Translations under genes and position numbers: made by a program | Sequence record: NC_029091.1 | Length of the DNA: 64,000 nt | Source of the DNA: Escherichia phage APCEc01 | Strand: one strand, 5' to 3' | In this document: positions 1 through 30,133 of the stretch, piece after piece | How positions within the stretch are numbered: the first letter of the stretch is position 1 | Layout of the letters: each line of letters starts with the position of its first letter | The notes under the pieces: generated by a model | Database searches by the model: none | Told to the model about the DNA's origin: nothing | What the model saw: only the letters and a program-made list of their open reading frames with translations

Positions 1-1023
1 ATGGCTGAATGGATAGATAATGAATTTGCTTATCGTGCGTTTTCTCACCTCCCTCGTTTTAGACAAATCAATAATTCAAGCACATTTAAATTAACGTTTC
101 GTTGTCCAGTTTGTGGCGACTCCCAGACAGATGCAATGAAAGCCCGCGGTTGGTATTACGGTGGTACTCCTGGTAATGTACATTGCTATAACTGTCAATA
201 CCACAATACAATTTCAGGATACTTAAAAGAGTACGATGAAGAGCTTTATCGCGAGTATCTAATGGAAGTTCGTAAAGAAAAAGCTAGAATGGAACCAAAG
301 ATTGAAAAGGTTCCTGAAGCTAAGCCGGAGCCAGAGAAAAAGACTATAAATTCTTTGCCGTCTTGTTCTCGTCTGGACAAGCTGCCTGAAGAGCATCCTA
401 TTGTGAAATATGTTAAGACTCGGTGTATTCCTAAAGAATCATGGAACAGATTATGGTTCACATTAGAATGGCCCAAATTGGTCAACAAGATTCAACCTGG
501 TACGTATAAGAAAGAGATTCCCGAACCACGTTTAGTTATTCCTATTTTTAATAAAGATGGGAAGGCCGAGTCATTCCAAGGACGTGCACTTCGTAAAGAT
601 GCTCCTCAGAAATATATCACTATTAAAGCGTTTGAGTCTGCAACAAAAATTTATGGTGTTGAACGTGTTAAGGAAGGGGACGTCTGGGTAATGGAAGGCC
701 CTATTGATAGTTTATTCATACCCAATGCAATCGCTATTACAGGCGGCTCGATAGATTTAGATGTGGTACCATTTAAAGAACGTCGGGTATGGGTAATGGA
801 TAATGAACCTAGGCATCCGGATACTATAGCTCGCATGAAGCGATTAGTTGATGCAGGCGAACGTGTCATGTTCTGGGACCGAGCTCCATGGAGATCAAAG
901 GATGTGAATGATATGGTAATGAAAGAAAATGCAACACCACAAGAAATTTTAGAATATATGAAACAGAATATTTCAAGTGGGTTGCATGCTAAAATGAGAT
1001 TATCTCGTTATTCGAAGATTTAA
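1..1023 (+). CDS. 61: DNA primase gp61
   Basis: 340 aa; N-terminal zinc ribbon CPVCGDS...CYNC; TOPRIM-like MEGPIDSLF and DNEPRH; near-colinear with T4 gp61 (342 aa) as I recall it. Confidence 0.9.
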   Translation: MAEWIDNEFAYRAFSHLPRFRQINNSSTFKLTFRCPVCGDSQTDAMKARGWYYGGTPGNVHCYNCQYHNTISGYLKEYDEELYREYLMEVRKEKARMEPKIEKVPEAKPEPEKKTINSLPSCSRLDKLPEEHPIVKYVKTRCIPKESWNRLWFTLEWPKLVNKIQPGTYKKEIPEPRLVIPIFNKDGKAESFQGRALRKDAPQKYITIKAFESATKIYGVERVKEGDVWVMEGPIDSLFIPNAIAITGGSIDLDVVPFKERRVWVMDNEPRHPDTIARMKRLVDAGERVMFWDRAPWRSKDVNDMVMKENATPQEILEYMKQNISSGLHAKMRLSRYSKI

Positions 1024-1217
1024 ACAAGCCCTATAATAGCAAAGGCCAAATCAACTACAGTATCCAATGGAACAGAAGGAACTATAATACCATGGGCAAC
1101 TAACAATGGTGCAATCCCGAAGTTCCATGAAATAATGCCACCTACAACTATTGCAGCGATAGCAGTTTTCTTTTTATTGCCTTTAATAGCGTTGATTAAC
1201 GATGGAAGTTTAAACAT
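1020..1217 (-). CDS. small hydrophobic membrane protein, antisense to the early genes
   Basis: 65 aa; strong SD (TAAGGAGAT) 5 nt before ATG; hydrophobic segments AIAAIVVGGII and LLVAHGIIV; late-promoter-like ATAAATA upstream on the minus strand. Confidence 0.4.
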   Translation of the reverse strand: MFKLPSLINAIKGNKKKTAIAAIVVGGIISWNFGIAPLLVAHGIIVPSVPLDTVVDLAFAIIGLV

Positions 1218-1305
1218 AATATCTCCTTAGTTACCTATTATTTATTACGCTTTATAAAATTAATGTTAGAATTAACTCTCTTATACTGAATTGAAAGGAA
1301 AAATA

Positions 1306-1827
1306 ATGGCACACTTTAACGAATGTTCACAACTTATTTCTGGTGTTGATAAAGCGGAAGAAGCTTATTTTAATGCTCTGATTCACGAAGATAAAGACCC
1401 ACTGCAGGTAATGCTTGATATGCAGAAATCTTTACAGGTTCGTCTGGCAAATGACAAGCCTGAACATAACAAACATCCTGATGAATTGGCCACTGCTGGT
1501 GATGTTGTTGATTGGCTGCGTAATCAGAAAGATTATATTGATGATGAATTCCGTGAACTGCTGACTTCACTTGGCGGTATGAGCAATGGTGAAAAAGCCG
1601 CCAGCAGTGTATGGAAGCCGTGGAAGGCACAACATGCTGAATATCGAAATCGTCGTATCGATGAACTGTCTCCTGAAGACCAGCTTGAAATTAAATTTGA
1701 AATGATTGATATTCTGCATTTCGTTCTAAATATGTTCCAAGGTCTAGGTCTTTCGGCTGAAGAAATCTTTAAACTTTACTACTTGAAAAACCAACACAAC
1801 TTTGAACGTCAGGATAATGGTTACTGA
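1306..1827 (+). CDS. 56: dCTP pyrophosphatase gp56 (MazG-like)
   Basis: Start MAHFNEC at ATG 1306 with RBS AAAGGA (track start 1291 is TTG); about 173 aa; matches T4 gp56 by recollection. Confidence 0.85.
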   Translation: MAHFNECSQLISGVDKAEEAYFNALIHEDKDPLQVMLDMQKSLQVRLANDKPEHNKHPDELATAGDVVDWLRNQKDYIDDEFRELLTSLGGMSNGEKAASSVWKPWKAQHAEYRNRRIDELSPEDQLEIKFEMIDILHFVLNMFQGLGLSAEEIFKLYYLKNQHNFERQDNGY

Positions 1828-1872: not shown

Positions 1873-2109
1873 ATGGGTGGTTACGTTAATATCAAAACCT
1901 TTACACGTCCGGCTGGTGAAGGTAAAGAAGTTAAAGGTATGGAAGTTTCTGTACCGTTTGAAATTTATTCAAACGAACATCGGATTGCAGATTCTCATTA
2001 TCAGACCTTTCCTTCTGAAAAGGCGGCATATTCTACTGTAGTTTCTGATGCAGCTGACTGGAAAACTAAGAATGCTGCAATGTTTACGCCTACACAAATA
2101 GGTGGTTAA
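1873..2109 (+). CDS. soc: small outer capsid protein Soc
   Basis: 78 aa; GYVNIKTF and HYQTFPSEKAAYSTV match T4 Soc. Confidence 0.85.
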   Translation: MGGYVNIKTFTRPAGEGKEVKGMEVSVPFEIYSNEHRIADSHYQTFPSEKAAYSTVVSDAADWKTKNAAMFTPTQIGG

Positions 2110-17105: not shown

Positions 17106-18053
17106 ATGTACAATATCAAATGCTTGTCCCAAGAAGAACAGTTAGAAGCTTACGGCCTGGTTGAATCAGGCAAATGGACTCGTAAAGAAATTGCCGATTA
17201 CTTCGACATTTCAACAGATACTCTTCGTAAGATTGTTAAGAATTTTAAAGCAGAAGGCGTTGCCCCTGAAGCAAACGATGCCTCTTATGTAATCGAAGAA
17301 GTTCCAGAAAATGATGAACCTATTATCGGCGGACATCGTCCTGAAATCGTATGGAACGCGTCATCTAAATTTATTTCAATTATTGAAGGACGCGTAGCAT
17401 ACAATGCGACTCCATCAAGTCATGCAAATTTTGAAGAAATTAAAGCTAATCTGGTCGCAGGAAACCTTAGTAAAGCTGTCGAACTTATTAACATCAAGAA
17501 AGCTATTACTAAGTTTGTTGATGGTAATGTTACTATTGAAGGTGGTAGTTTATTTTATCAAGGTATAGAGATTCGTTCAGGGCTGGTTAACCGTATTATT
17601 GATTCTATGGAAAAAGGTGAAGACTTTAAATTCTATCTGCCATTCCTTGAAAACCTGTTAGAAAACCCAAGCGAAAAAGCTGTACAACGTTTATTCGACT
17701 TCTTGGTTGCAAACGATATTGAAATCACTGAAGATGGTCATTTCTATGCGTGGAAAGTAGTTCGTAAGGACTATTTAGACTGCTATAGTGGTACATTTGA
17801 TAACTCCCCAGGTAAAGTTGTTTCAATGCCTCGTACTCGAGTTAACGACGATGATACTCAAACCTGTTCTCGCGGTCTCCATGTTTGTGCTAAATCTTAT
17901 ATTCGCCACTTTGGTTCAAGCTCAGATAAAGTTGTGAAAGTTAAAGTTCATCCACGTGATGTTGTATCCATCCCAGTTGACTATGGTGATGCTAAGATGC
18001 GTACTTGTCGTTACGAAGTAATTTCAGACGTTACTGAATTATTTGCAGAATAA
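17106..18053 (+). CDS. rIIB: rIIB protein
   Basis: 315 aa directly after rIIA; matches T4 rIIB (312 aa). Confidence 0.85.
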   Translation: MYNIKCLSQEEQLEAYGLVESGKWTRKEIADYFDISTDTLRKIVKNFKAEGVAPEANDASYVIEEVPENDEPIIGGHRPEIVWNASSKFISIIEGRVAYNATPSSHANFEEIKANLVAGNLSKAVELINIKKAITKFVDGNVTIEGGSLFYQGIEIRSGLVNRIIDSMEKGEDFKFYLPFLENLLENPSEKAVQRLFDFLVANDIEITEDGHFYAWKVVRKDYLDCYSGTFDNSPGKVVSMPRTRVNDDDTQTCSRGLHVCAKSYIRHFGSSSDKVVKVKVHPRDVVSIPVDYGDAKMRTCRYEVISDVTELFAE

Positions 18054-25125: not shown

Positions 25126-25785
25126 TTATTTAGCCCTTCCTAGTATTCGGACCGCTTGGTTGCATATAGCCGCTAAGCGATCTTCCTCAAGTATATTATT
25201 CCCCTTATACCAATACATCGTCACAGTTCCAGCATAGATGTTATCCAAATTAAAGTATGGACAACTATACATATAAGAAAGTTCGGCAGTCTTAGATTTT
25301 GTAGGCAAAAATGCAAATTCTGATTTAGATGAGAAATGACGGCCACTTAAATGAATTATATATTCATTAGCCGTTTTATCCACCGGGAATCCACCAAGGG
25401 ACTTTTCAGAAATTGTGCTAGGTAGTTTGCCTTCATAAGCTATAAGGTCGACAAAATAATTTAAGTTTTTAGGTCTGAAAGAATACACAGCACTAAAATC
25501 TGCACCAGATGAGATATGAACTATTTGCAGTTGTTCTAGAGCCGCAGATTCAAAACGTAAAGCTCGTTCTTTTTGGATTATTTCAGTATAAGTATCATAC
25601 TTAGCTCTTACATAATAATCCAGCAAAATACTTCCTTTGTACCATATTAGTGCCATTAGGAACAAAAGAATAATTACCGCTACTCGGGACATTAAAACCT
25701 TTCCAGTAGCGTTATCTTTGAAAATACGATCTAGCAACCCAAATAGAATATCACTAAGCGAAAATGACACTTTTGGTGTTGCCAT
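25126..25785 (-). CDS. t: holin T
   Basis: 219 aa; N-terminal TM then large periplasmic domain; matches T4 holin (218 aa). Confidence 0.9.
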   Translation of the reverse strand: MATPKVSFSLSDILFGLLDRIFKDNATGKVLMSRVAVIILLFLMALIWYKGSILLDYYVRAKYDTYTEIIQKERALRFESAALEQLQIVHISSGADFSAVYSFRPKNLNYFVDLIAYEGKLPSTISEKSLGGFPVDKTANEYIIHLSGRHFSSKSEFAFLPTKSKTAELSYMYSCPYFNLDNIYAGTVTMYWYKGNNILEEDRLAAICNQAVRILGRAK

Positions 25786-25794
25786 AATACCTCC

Positions 25795-26346
25795 TTACTT
25801 AAAGATATTTATAATCGCTTTGATAATAGATTTGTTTTCAAGGTCAGGGAATTTAGGTAATTCGCCGCCAAGATGTTCATGTTTTTCTAAAAGGGCAAAG
25901 AATTTTTTGAGCTCTTTAAATTTTCGTTTTTCTTCTCTATTAGCAACCTCTGCGTCAATAAGAGAACTTAAAACACTGAATAATTTATAGAGTTCATGAA
26001 TTTTCTTATCACGTTGAACTACGCGTTTATATGCTTCATCTTCCTTCCACCCGTCGTCAGTCCAAAGGTCAAATTCACCTGGTTCTTCTGTAGTGACATT
26101 TTGAAGAGCACCTGGAGTGTCAATAACAATTTTTTGCTTATCATAAGTCCATACTGTTTTTCCGCGATGGTCTTCAACATATACCCATTCTTGCTCGCGT
26201 TCATCAAATATAACAGCATAGCCTTCTTTAGGGTCTAAAGGTTTTTTTGGTGTCGAATGAGCCGGAAATCCTACGCCTTTTAATGGTTTATAATTTTCTT
26301 CTTTGTAAAATTCTTTAGTGTCAAAATAATAGTGATAGAGTTTCAT
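25795..26346 (-). CDS. 38: gp38, distal long tail fiber assembly chaperone (T4-type)
   Basis: 183 aa; MKLYHYYFDTKEFYKEENYKP and FALLEKHEHLGGE match T4 gp38. Confidence 0.9.
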   Translation of the reverse strand: MKLYHYYFDTKEFYKEENYKPLKGVGFPAHSTPKKPLDPKEGYAVIFDEREQEWVYVEDHRGKTVWTYDKQKIVIDTPGALQNVTTEEPGEFDLWTDDGWKEDEAYKRVVQRDKKIHELYKLFSVLSSLIDAEVANREEKRKFKELKKFFALLEKHEHLGGELPKFPDLENKSIIKAIINIFK

Positions 26347-29435: not shown

Positions 29436-30101
29436 TTAATAATAGCCGAAATCTTGAACAGAATCCTTAATTACGATTTGGTCGAAACGAGGAACATGAT
29501 TAGCCTCAGACGCCGGATTCTGTGAGAAAAAGTTTGGTGCTGTTAAAGTACCAGTCATGGTATCGCCTTTACGCAATACACGGGAATTTGCGTTATCCGT
29601 AACAATATTTATTCGTCCATCAACATAATCTTTTCTTGTGAGATCATTTGCTGCAACCGGAGCAGTCATATCGCTTCTTACTTGTCCTGAAGCAGATACA
29701 ACGCCCTTTGTATTAATATCGCCATTACGTGTATTGATTACTACAGTTCTACCCGCTGTTCCTTGTGATGATTTAAAACCAATACCATACCACGAAACAA
29801 TATCAATATTTGCTGTAACAAAAGTAGCTGCATCTCCATTACCAGGATAAATACCAGATTGATTTGTATTGTTTATAGCATATGGTATTTGAACACCGCT
29901 GTTAAATGTTACCTTTGATGCATAAGTACCACCATTAGCTTTAGAAACGAAATCGTTATCAGCAGCTTGTGGTTTATTATATTCTGAATAGAGTTTAAAC
30001 GTTTTATACAGGACGTCATCACCTGCTGGCATTAAAGGGAAATTACCTTGATGCCATATAACGGCACCGCCAGTTGTACTACCAGCTTTTAAATCGGCCA
30101 T
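29436..30101 (-). CDS. 36: gp36, long tail fiber hinge
   Basis: 221 aa, same size and position as T4 gp36. Confidence 0.85.
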
Positions 30102-30125: not shown

Positions 30126-30133
30126 TATTTATA
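30126..30133 (-). promoter_or_regulatory. late promoter (TATAAATA) for gene 36
   Basis: TATAAATA on the minus strand about 25 nt upstream of the gp36 ATG. Confidence 0.65.

Follow-up and report, generated by a model that had tools for sequence, protein, structure and literature searches.

The stretch of DNA analysed here, hereafter the window, comprises 64,000 nucleotides (nt) of Escherichia phage APCEc01 (sequence record NC_029091.1), a Mosigvirus of the RB69-like type whose sequence in the region of interest is 100% identical to that of Escherichia phage AV110. The subject is a 65-codon open reading frame (ORF) at 1020..1217(-), which encodes a protein of 65 amino acids (aa), MFKLPSLINAIKGNKKKTAIAAIVVGGIISWNFGIAPLLVAHGIIVPSVPLDTVVDLAFAIIGLV, and lies on the strand opposite to genes 61 and 56. 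Gene 61 (DNA primase, 1-1023(+), its ATG being the window start) runs towards the small ORF, and gene 56 (dCTPase, 1306-1827(+), followed by soc) runs away from it; both neighbours were assigned from the ORF list and from annotated relatives. The ATG of the small ORF was located at 1215-1217 and its stop at 1020-1022, the latter sharing a common TTAA with the primase stop (1021-1023). The first-pass annotation had placed an antisense 65-aa ORF in the 61-56 intergenic region. The ORF is present, but because of the overlap with the primase stop it is not wholly intergenic. From the ORF list, a profile match and the ratio of non-synonymous to synonymous change (dN/dS), it was assigned as a small membrane-protein coding sequence (CDS) of the RB69ORF029w/T4 'dam.1' type (phrog_2024).

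The sequence upstream of the ATG was then inspected for expression signals. A Shine-Dalgarno (SD) sequence, TAAGGAG, was found at 1223-1229(-) with a 5-nt spacer to the ATG, and GGAG or GGAGG was present in all 16 relatives compared, in agreement with the near-perfect SD claimed at first. A late-promoter-type element, AATAAATA, which is TATAAATA with A at -13, occupies 1239-1246(-), 21 nt before the ATG. The late-promoter-like element of the earlier description was thus also recovered, and its type is conserved across relatives.

The significance of these features was evaluated against chance. Many ORFs of at least 60 aa occur in wrong frames of the window, and ORF length is not significant by itself. 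The octamer alone is not significant either, since the window contains 3 copies of AATAAATA where 9 would be expected, and 6 of TATAAATA where the expectation is 6.9. Of the 16 ATAAATA sites in the window, only 4 are followed by an SD and ATG within about 25 nt, and two of the others belong to the T holin and gp36 genes, where they form perfect late promoters. Because the elements combine at this locus and are conserved among relatives, the ORF is more than a chance open frame. When it was compared with the 82%-identical homologue of ESCO47, 18.5 non-synonymous and 31.5 synonymous changes were counted (dN 0.139, dS 1.43, ratio 0.10), and the differences at codon positions 1, 2 and 3 numbered 15, 3 and 32. 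Ratios of 0.10-0.36 were obtained for most other homologue pairs, and shifted frames gave higher values. Homologues were detected by tblastn in 691 phage records covering at least 8 genera with 25-55% identity, and the ORF was intact in about 689 of them. The proposed check of conservation and synonymous constraint therefore came out in favor of the gene, with dN/dS of about 0.10 in the correct frame. Natural length variants (P0004, P0032) showed in-frame 3-codon deletions. Frameshifted copies were seen only twice, both in doubtful records: laboratory-evolved T4_ev240 has lost 1 nt in an A6 run of the T4-type ORF, and the UNVERIFIED ERS-1 record carries a 2-nt insertion in the T4-type ORF (both in the L035/L036 pair). 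These frameshifts may have arisen from sequencing mistakes, or they may mean that phages can do without the gene under laboratory conditions. Judged by sequence comparison, 1020-1217(-) is a real, conserved protein-coding gene under purifying selection in T-even-type phages.

The gene was not new to the literature, and the view that it was an unrecognised ORF had to be abandoned. The RB69 copy was published as RB69ORF029w among 'novel ORFs' without a T4 orthologue (PMC1524935), with a transmembrane (TM) helix predicted at 21-41 and no signal peptide (PMC1524935 Additional file 2). It is annotated in nearly all relatives, including about 150 Mosigvirus genomes in which it appears as a 'hypothetical protein' of 95-100% identity. 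The window protein matched phrog_2024 (function unknown) with an E value of 1.9e-27, residues 1-65 aligning with profile positions 1-65 of 65. RB69ORF029w, the T-even 'dam.1' and phrog_2024 are the same gene as the window ORF, with no structural difference. The supposed lack of a T4 counterpart did not hold either. T4 has a homologue of 66 aa and 54% identity in the interval from dam to gene 61 (NC_000866 17738-17938(+)), with GATAAATA and AAGGAGG upstream of it. The T4 RefSeq record NC_000866.4 has no feature at 17738-17938(+), whereas newer records do annotate the gene; the T2 (LC348380) and JS10 (EU863409) records likewise have no CDS for the homologue, and in the RB10 record the T4-type homologue is labeled dam.1. 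T4, T2 and more than 500 Tequatrovirus records carry this 66-aa homologue in the same place and on the same strand, by the 3′ end of gene 61, and in the T4-like phages examined the gene lies on the opposite strand at the 3′ end of the primase gene. Several labels given to family members in the databases are unsupported: 'dCTP pyrophosphatase' in Salmonella phage CGG4-1 (L021 1201-1425), 'DNA packaging ATPase' in Klebsiella phage SAKp28, 'Holin' in OE5505 (UniRef) and 'putative holin' in KP1079.

Among the relatives, which are spread across Tevenvirinae, all 23 diverse members tested matched phrog_2024, and three subtypes were distinguished. Type A occurs in Mosigvirus, Tequatrovirus and Gaprivervirus. 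Type B (MGT-FYQIWKL...) occurs in Dhakavirus and Gaprivervirus and in T4-like phages of Klebsiella, Enterobacter, Pectobacterium and Salmonella. Type C, with an MSE...K-rich N-terminus, was found in Jiaodavirus/Slopekvirus-like Klebsiella phages, S16-like Salmonella phages and Citrobacter phage Moon. Two phages carry tandem copies. In ESCO47 (Mosigvirus; L006 1805-2198) type B comes first and its stop overlaps the start of type A, and in TH41 (Gaprivervirus; L005 2001-2407) type A precedes type B. In both phages the copies are translationally coupled and so make up small operons, and in each pair the ATAAATA element was found only before the first gene. Some Gaprivervirus records retain type B as fragments only (H151-H153). 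A type B remnant was also considered for the window and rejected, the 88-bp spacer being too short. A core motif, W-N-x4-P-x5-G-x3-P-x4-(D/E), located in and after the single TM helix, is shared by the family and present in the window protein. In alignments of the T4-like profile (A2) and of the whole family (A4), W31, N32, P37, G43 and P47 were invariant or nearly so, and position 52 (D52 here) was almost always acidic.

The timing of expression was addressed by comparing the promoter element across loci. Of 16 diverse loci, 14 have a perfectly matching ATAAATA that stops 13-22 nt short of the first gene's ATG, the preceding base being T, A, G or C; the remaining two carry ATTAAATA. With an ATAAATA background of 2.1e-4 per position, the chance of a match in a 10-nt slot is p=0.002 per locus. 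The 16 loci come from related phages, but their flanks no longer align, which points to maintenance of the motif. Geiduschek and Kassavetis (PMC2988020) list 50 late promoters of T4, with 32 perfect sequences, 9 with A at -13 and one exception in which TA is changed to AT, so AATAAATA corresponds to the most frequent natural variant of these promoters. In T4 relatives the -13 position is A or T (Nolan et al., 2006, PMC1524935). The window ORF shows the features of a late gene, namely a TATAAATA-type element at about -13 to -6 and no -35 element. Early and middle transcription in T4-type phages has a single polarity (PMC2988020); since these transcripts run on the other strand, the ORF should be reachable by late transcription only. 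It shares its strand with t and gene 36. The T holin gene (25126-25785(-)) served as an internal comparison: it has TATAAATA at 25806-25813, then TAAGGAGG, and its ATG follows 20 nt after the octamer, so that the strand and the promoter-SD-ATG architecture are the same as those of the small ORF. Gene 36 (29436-30101(-)) has a promoter-SD-ATG unit like that of the T holin, with TATAAATA at 30126-30133. From these features we infer that the gene looks late-expressed. Transcription would occur only late, by gp55-RNA polymerase, starting about 6 nt downstream of AATAAATA; the sequence predicts a start near 1232-1234(-) and a leader of about 16 nt.

On its plus strand, the spacer between the small ORF and gene 56 also carries an element for gene 56 that resembles a middle promoter, with GCTT at 1249-1252, a 14-nt spacer and TAGAAT at 1267-1272. 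In the near-identical phage SA79RD this element carries the annotation of a T4-type middle promoter. As it abuts the minus-strand late element, the 88-bp spacer appears to hold two back-to-back divergent promoters. In T4, the gene 56 transcript is annotated as the oriA primer RNA (NC_000866.4), and the start of the small ORF therefore adjoins a position that is an origin region in T4. Further downstream, soc (1873-2109(+)) lies on the 'early' strand with its own TATAAATA at 1834-1841 and a strong terminator hairpin at 2116-2137. Late promoters are thus present on both strands of the 61-56-soc stretch.

The structure of the encoded protein was predicted with AlphaFold2 (AF2), using an alignment of 26 sequences. 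The model, with a pLDDT (AF2's per-residue confidence) of 84, contains helices at 3-13, 15-41 and 51-62. A single strongly hydrophobic stretch covers about residues 18-41. The AF2 model, the hydrophobicity and the published TM segment at 21-41 agree on one strong TM helix, which bears out the hydrophobic membrane peptide of the first-pass annotation, for which TM prediction had been proposed as a check. The N-terminal 22 residues carry a charge of +5. The last 24 residues carry -2, with two acidic and no basic residues; they are marginally hydrophobic and amphipathic and end in AFAIIGLV. By the positive-inside rule, the Lys-rich N-terminus (+5) makes an N-in/C-out topology likely: the N-terminus would be cytoplasmic, about residues 18-41 would cross the membrane as a single TM helix, and a turn rich in Pro would lead to the acidic, amphipathic helix 51-62 at the periplasmic face. 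Alternatively, the protein may form a two-helix hairpin. The conserved Trp-Asn within the span suggests helix-helix association, either of the protein with itself or with a partner.

More distant relatives were sought by several routes. A word-index protein search reached close relatives only, and IMG/VR gave 7 loci. A profile search of 1.8 billion proteins returned 18 relatives, some of them outside the T4-like phages, and scanning bacterial genomes with a degenerate DNA pattern gave 13 matches, 4 of which were true relatives, all in Enterobacterales. Chromosomes of Serratia, Scandinavium, Pseudescherichia and Pectobacterium encode relatives of about 96 aa, and a T4-type lysozyme gene lies no farther than about 1.5 kb away. 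When the T4-like profile was aligned to these prophage proteins (alignment A6) with hhalign, a match of 96.6% was obtained (E 5.6e-10, 43 columns, 40% identity); by this profile comparison the T4-like proteins appear firmly linked to the enterobacterial prophage proteins. The best Pfam match of the prophage proteins was PF11351 GTA_holin_3TM (E 6.7e-4, 20.6 bits), co-linear and below the cut-off. The best PF11351 scores were 20.6 bits for a 95-aa prophage protein, 15.3 for P0084 and 24.2 for a protein of Rhodobacter phage RC1, all below the gathering threshold of 24.8 bits, and the relatives' Pfam matches were co-linear with positions of about 66-117 of the 123-position model. Distant members also gave weak co-linear matches to the holin families phrog_3427 and phrog_11161. 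The RC1 protein, which occupies the holin position, was the best match of the 96-aa protein in a phage that is not T4-like; the cassette there runs lysozyme, PF11351-like protein (24.2 bits) and TM/coiled-coil protein. In hhalign, A6 matched the RC1 protein, itself just below the Pfam cut-off, at 91.5% (E 8.4e-7), and A4 matched the RC1 protein at 78% and an R5C protein at 76%. The family and the RC1 protein have the motif W-N...LPPxPx(D/E) in common. These matches would link the family weakly to PF11351-type holins and suggest that the T4-like protein may be a shortened relative of a holin family. A PDB sequence search with the window protein gave no match, and a fold search against viral models returned family members only.

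The gene neighborhoods of the distant relatives were also compared. In two uncultured phage contigs the relative follows endonuclease VII and precedes a 180-aa and then a 105-109-aa protein, with a T4-type lysozyme in one of them. The chromosomal relatives of about 96 aa belong to this gene set as well. A recurring gene set was seen at four non-T4-like loci (L028 3237-5918; L031 3260-5082; L040 2773-5177; L046 808-3233). It combines a membrane protein resembling phrog_2024 with two soluble proteins that have no family assignment (one basic, of about 180-200 aa, the other of about 105-112 aa), a T4-type lysozyme and a protein of about 90 aa with a TM helix and coiled coil, often together with endonuclease VII or a SegE-like GIY-YIG gene. 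In a metagenomic contig (L033 129-1383), a 59-aa member is immediately followed by a 352-aa protein with a RelA/SpoT domain. The description of the distant loci as a 'classical lysis cassette' was downgraded, given the intervening soluble proteins and occasional SegE-like endonuclease, the lack of lysozyme in L031 and the RelA/SpoT gene in L033.

The window protein was compared with known small membrane proteins of phages. With PF11351-type holins, for example the protein in the holin position of RC1, it appears to share a C-terminal module in which a TM helix bearing W-N precedes LPPxPx(D/E) and a short helix. However, it is about half their length, lacks their N-terminal amphipathic/charged helices and the W-R-P/Q-G motif, is not encoded beside an endolysin and coexists with the T holin. 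Holin T of T4 (class III) is, like the window protein, predicted to be an N-in, single-TM protein of the inner membrane, encoded by a late-type gene on the same strand and with the same spacing. No sequence relationship exists between the two, and T, at 219 aa, receives the RI antiholin signal through a large periplasmic domain, whereas only about 24 residues of the small protein extend past the membrane. Small class II holins and pinholins (S21 68; 65-95 aa, two TM helices) are similar in size and have two hydrophobic stretches, which is probably why some records label family members 'holin' or 'putative holin'. In contrast to class II holins, the second stretch of the window protein is marginally hydrophobic and amphipathic with two acidic residues, and neither a charged C-terminal tail nor a dual-start motif is present; no homology search was aimed at this class. 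The T4 proteins Imm and Sp, which act in superinfection exclusion, one of the functions proposed at first, are, like the window protein, small T-even envelope proteins. Scans of the window protein against Pfam, NCBIfam and PHROG gave no such family, and its gene lies on the late strand.

Taken together, the explanation we favor, with about an even chance of being correct as a whole, is that the ORF is a real and conserved gene for a small inner-membrane protein, expressed late, which acts as an accessory factor derived from a holin family. Such a factor would act at the end of infection, in lysis timing, membrane permeabilisation or membrane energisation, which is the weakest step of the proposal. 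Because the window carries a normal T holin, the small protein would be at most an accessory lysis or membrane factor, and an accessory late membrane role tied to lysis or membrane energisation, judged from the sequence, is held with somewhat less than even confidence. The lysis-timing function suggested at first thus gains some support from the remote similarity to holin families, but the scores are sub-threshold and the T holin is present. Assignment to the holins as a class was rejected. By the model it is a small inner-membrane protein of a phage with at least one TM helix, as holins are, but it does not have their charged C-terminus, is not adjacent to lysis genes and is not the sole candidate, the T holin being encoded at 25126-25785(-).

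Several observations weigh against the favored explanation. T4 t mutants fail to lyse, which argues against the small protein acting as a holin on its own. The window protein does not have the hydrophilic, charged C-terminus that holins typically carry, and in T4-like phages the gene does not lie beside the lysis genes, its neighbors in the window being primase and dCTPase. The window protein has no Pfam match at E<=10 and no NCBIfam match; all PF11351 scores are sub-threshold, and similarity between short hydrophobic helices is error-prone. At the distant loci two soluble proteins and a homing endonuclease separate the membrane protein from the lysozyme, which is missing altogether from L031, and in L033 the relative stands beside the RelA/SpoT gene. 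No late promoter was predicted for ORF029w in RB69 by Nolan et al. (2006, PMC1524935), so that the putative late-promoter assignment is new. A literature survey on RB69ORF029w, dam.1, T4 small ORFs, ribosome profiling (Ribo-seq) and the mapping of transcription start sites (TSSs) and antisense RNA found no transcript, ribosome, proteomic or genetic data, the TSS table of the T4 differential RNA sequencing (dRNA-seq) study being outside its scope; that preprint reports 150 phage TSSs, 22 of them antisense.

Alternative explanations were weighed against the same data. The ORF might be a chance open frame or a decaying, unexpressed remnant, as the missing feature in the curated T4 RefSeq, T2 and JS10 annotations, the frameshifts in two records and the frequency of such ORF lengths by chance in this AT-rich DNA could suggest. 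However, purifying selection is restricted to the correct frame, the ORF is intact across nearly all records and genera despite low identity, the SD and promoter are conserved, and the length variants lost whole codons instead of shifting frame. The chance reading appears already contradicted by these comparative data, and we regard it as very improbable. A real late small membrane protein with a role unrelated to lysis comes next after the favored explanation, although it is itself rather unlikely. Candidate roles are a block of DNA entry by superinfecting phage, the countering of a membrane-based host defence, and membrane assembly at the portal or prohead initiation site, and the resemblance to holins would then reflect only shared ancestry or convergence of TM helices. 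The gene, timing and topology evidence would be the same as for the accessory lysis factor, and the sub-threshold holin-family scores, the missing holin-type C-terminus and the T holin already present fit this alternative; so does the adjacency to primase, not to e, t or the spanins, which is conserved in all T4-like genera examined. On the other hand, the known T4 exclusion proteins Imm and Sp are products of early genes on the early strand, and exclusion late in the lytic cycle would bring little benefit. Moreover, Pfam, NCBIfam and PDB searches gave no similarity to a defence, anti-defence or other named family, and the only recurrent similarities and neighborhoods point to lysozyme and holin. 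A bolder version of the holin link, which we consider rather improbable, is that the T-even phages, T4 included, possess a second holin-family protein that has been overlooked. It would be what is left of a GTA/PF11351-type holin, reduced to one helix and made only late, and would tune the lysis clock or the membrane potential beside T, RI and RIII, for instance by depolarising the membrane as a pinholin does or by modulating T triggering; its transcript might run antisense through primase.

Antisense transcription also forms the core of the remaining alternative. No minus-strand terminator-like site was predicted within window positions 1-1020 (gene 61), and the late RNA may therefore continue antisense through the primase gene. 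A hairpin, GGCCTTA-loop-TAAGGCC, was observed just upstream of the primase start in a Mosigvirus (L002 569-598) and in Citrobacter phage Moon (L024 2396-2415), where it is annotated as a terminator on the strand of the small ORF and followed by ATTTTAT. Judging from its position, this hairpin could be the end of a late antisense RNA that spans the whole primase gene. The late promoter might accordingly serve mainly to make antisense RNA over primase (in T4, directed away from oriA) and to shut down gene 61 and priming late in infection, with the ORF as a passenger. Besides the hairpin common to a Mosigvirus and Moon and the missing terminator, the ORF ending within the primase stop would fit this proposal, and several T4 sites are transcribed on both strands at different times (PMC2988020). 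However, it does not account for a dN/dS of about 0.1, the invariant residues, the strong conserved SD or the tandem paralogues. The ORF of Gaprivervirus CJ20 ends 119 bp before the primase gene, indicating that the overlap is not conserved, and homologues in other phages and in prophages are not beside primase. We therefore consider an antisense RNA as the main product quite improbable. An antisense effect on primase is a possibility compatible with the late accessory membrane protein, as an additional and non-exclusive function.

What this analysis adds to the published record is the omission from the T4 reference, the late-promoter element across the family and a tentative link to holin families, as well as the three subtypes, the tandem paralogues in some phages and the relatives outside the T4-like phages. 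NC_000866 should carry a CDS at 17738-17938(+), and the database labels 'dCTP pyrophosphatase', 'DNA packaging ATPase' and 'holin' are unsupported for the family. Gene-by-gene screens that start from the T4 reference annotation, in which the gene is not listed, therefore do not cover it either. The T4 lysis system, made up of T, E, RI, RIII and the spanins, is a textbook case whose parts list is regarded as complete. If deletion of the gene alters lysis timing or lysis inhibition, it would be a new component of this classical pathway; if deletion has no effect, the gene would join the many small membrane proteins of T4-like phages whose role is unknown.

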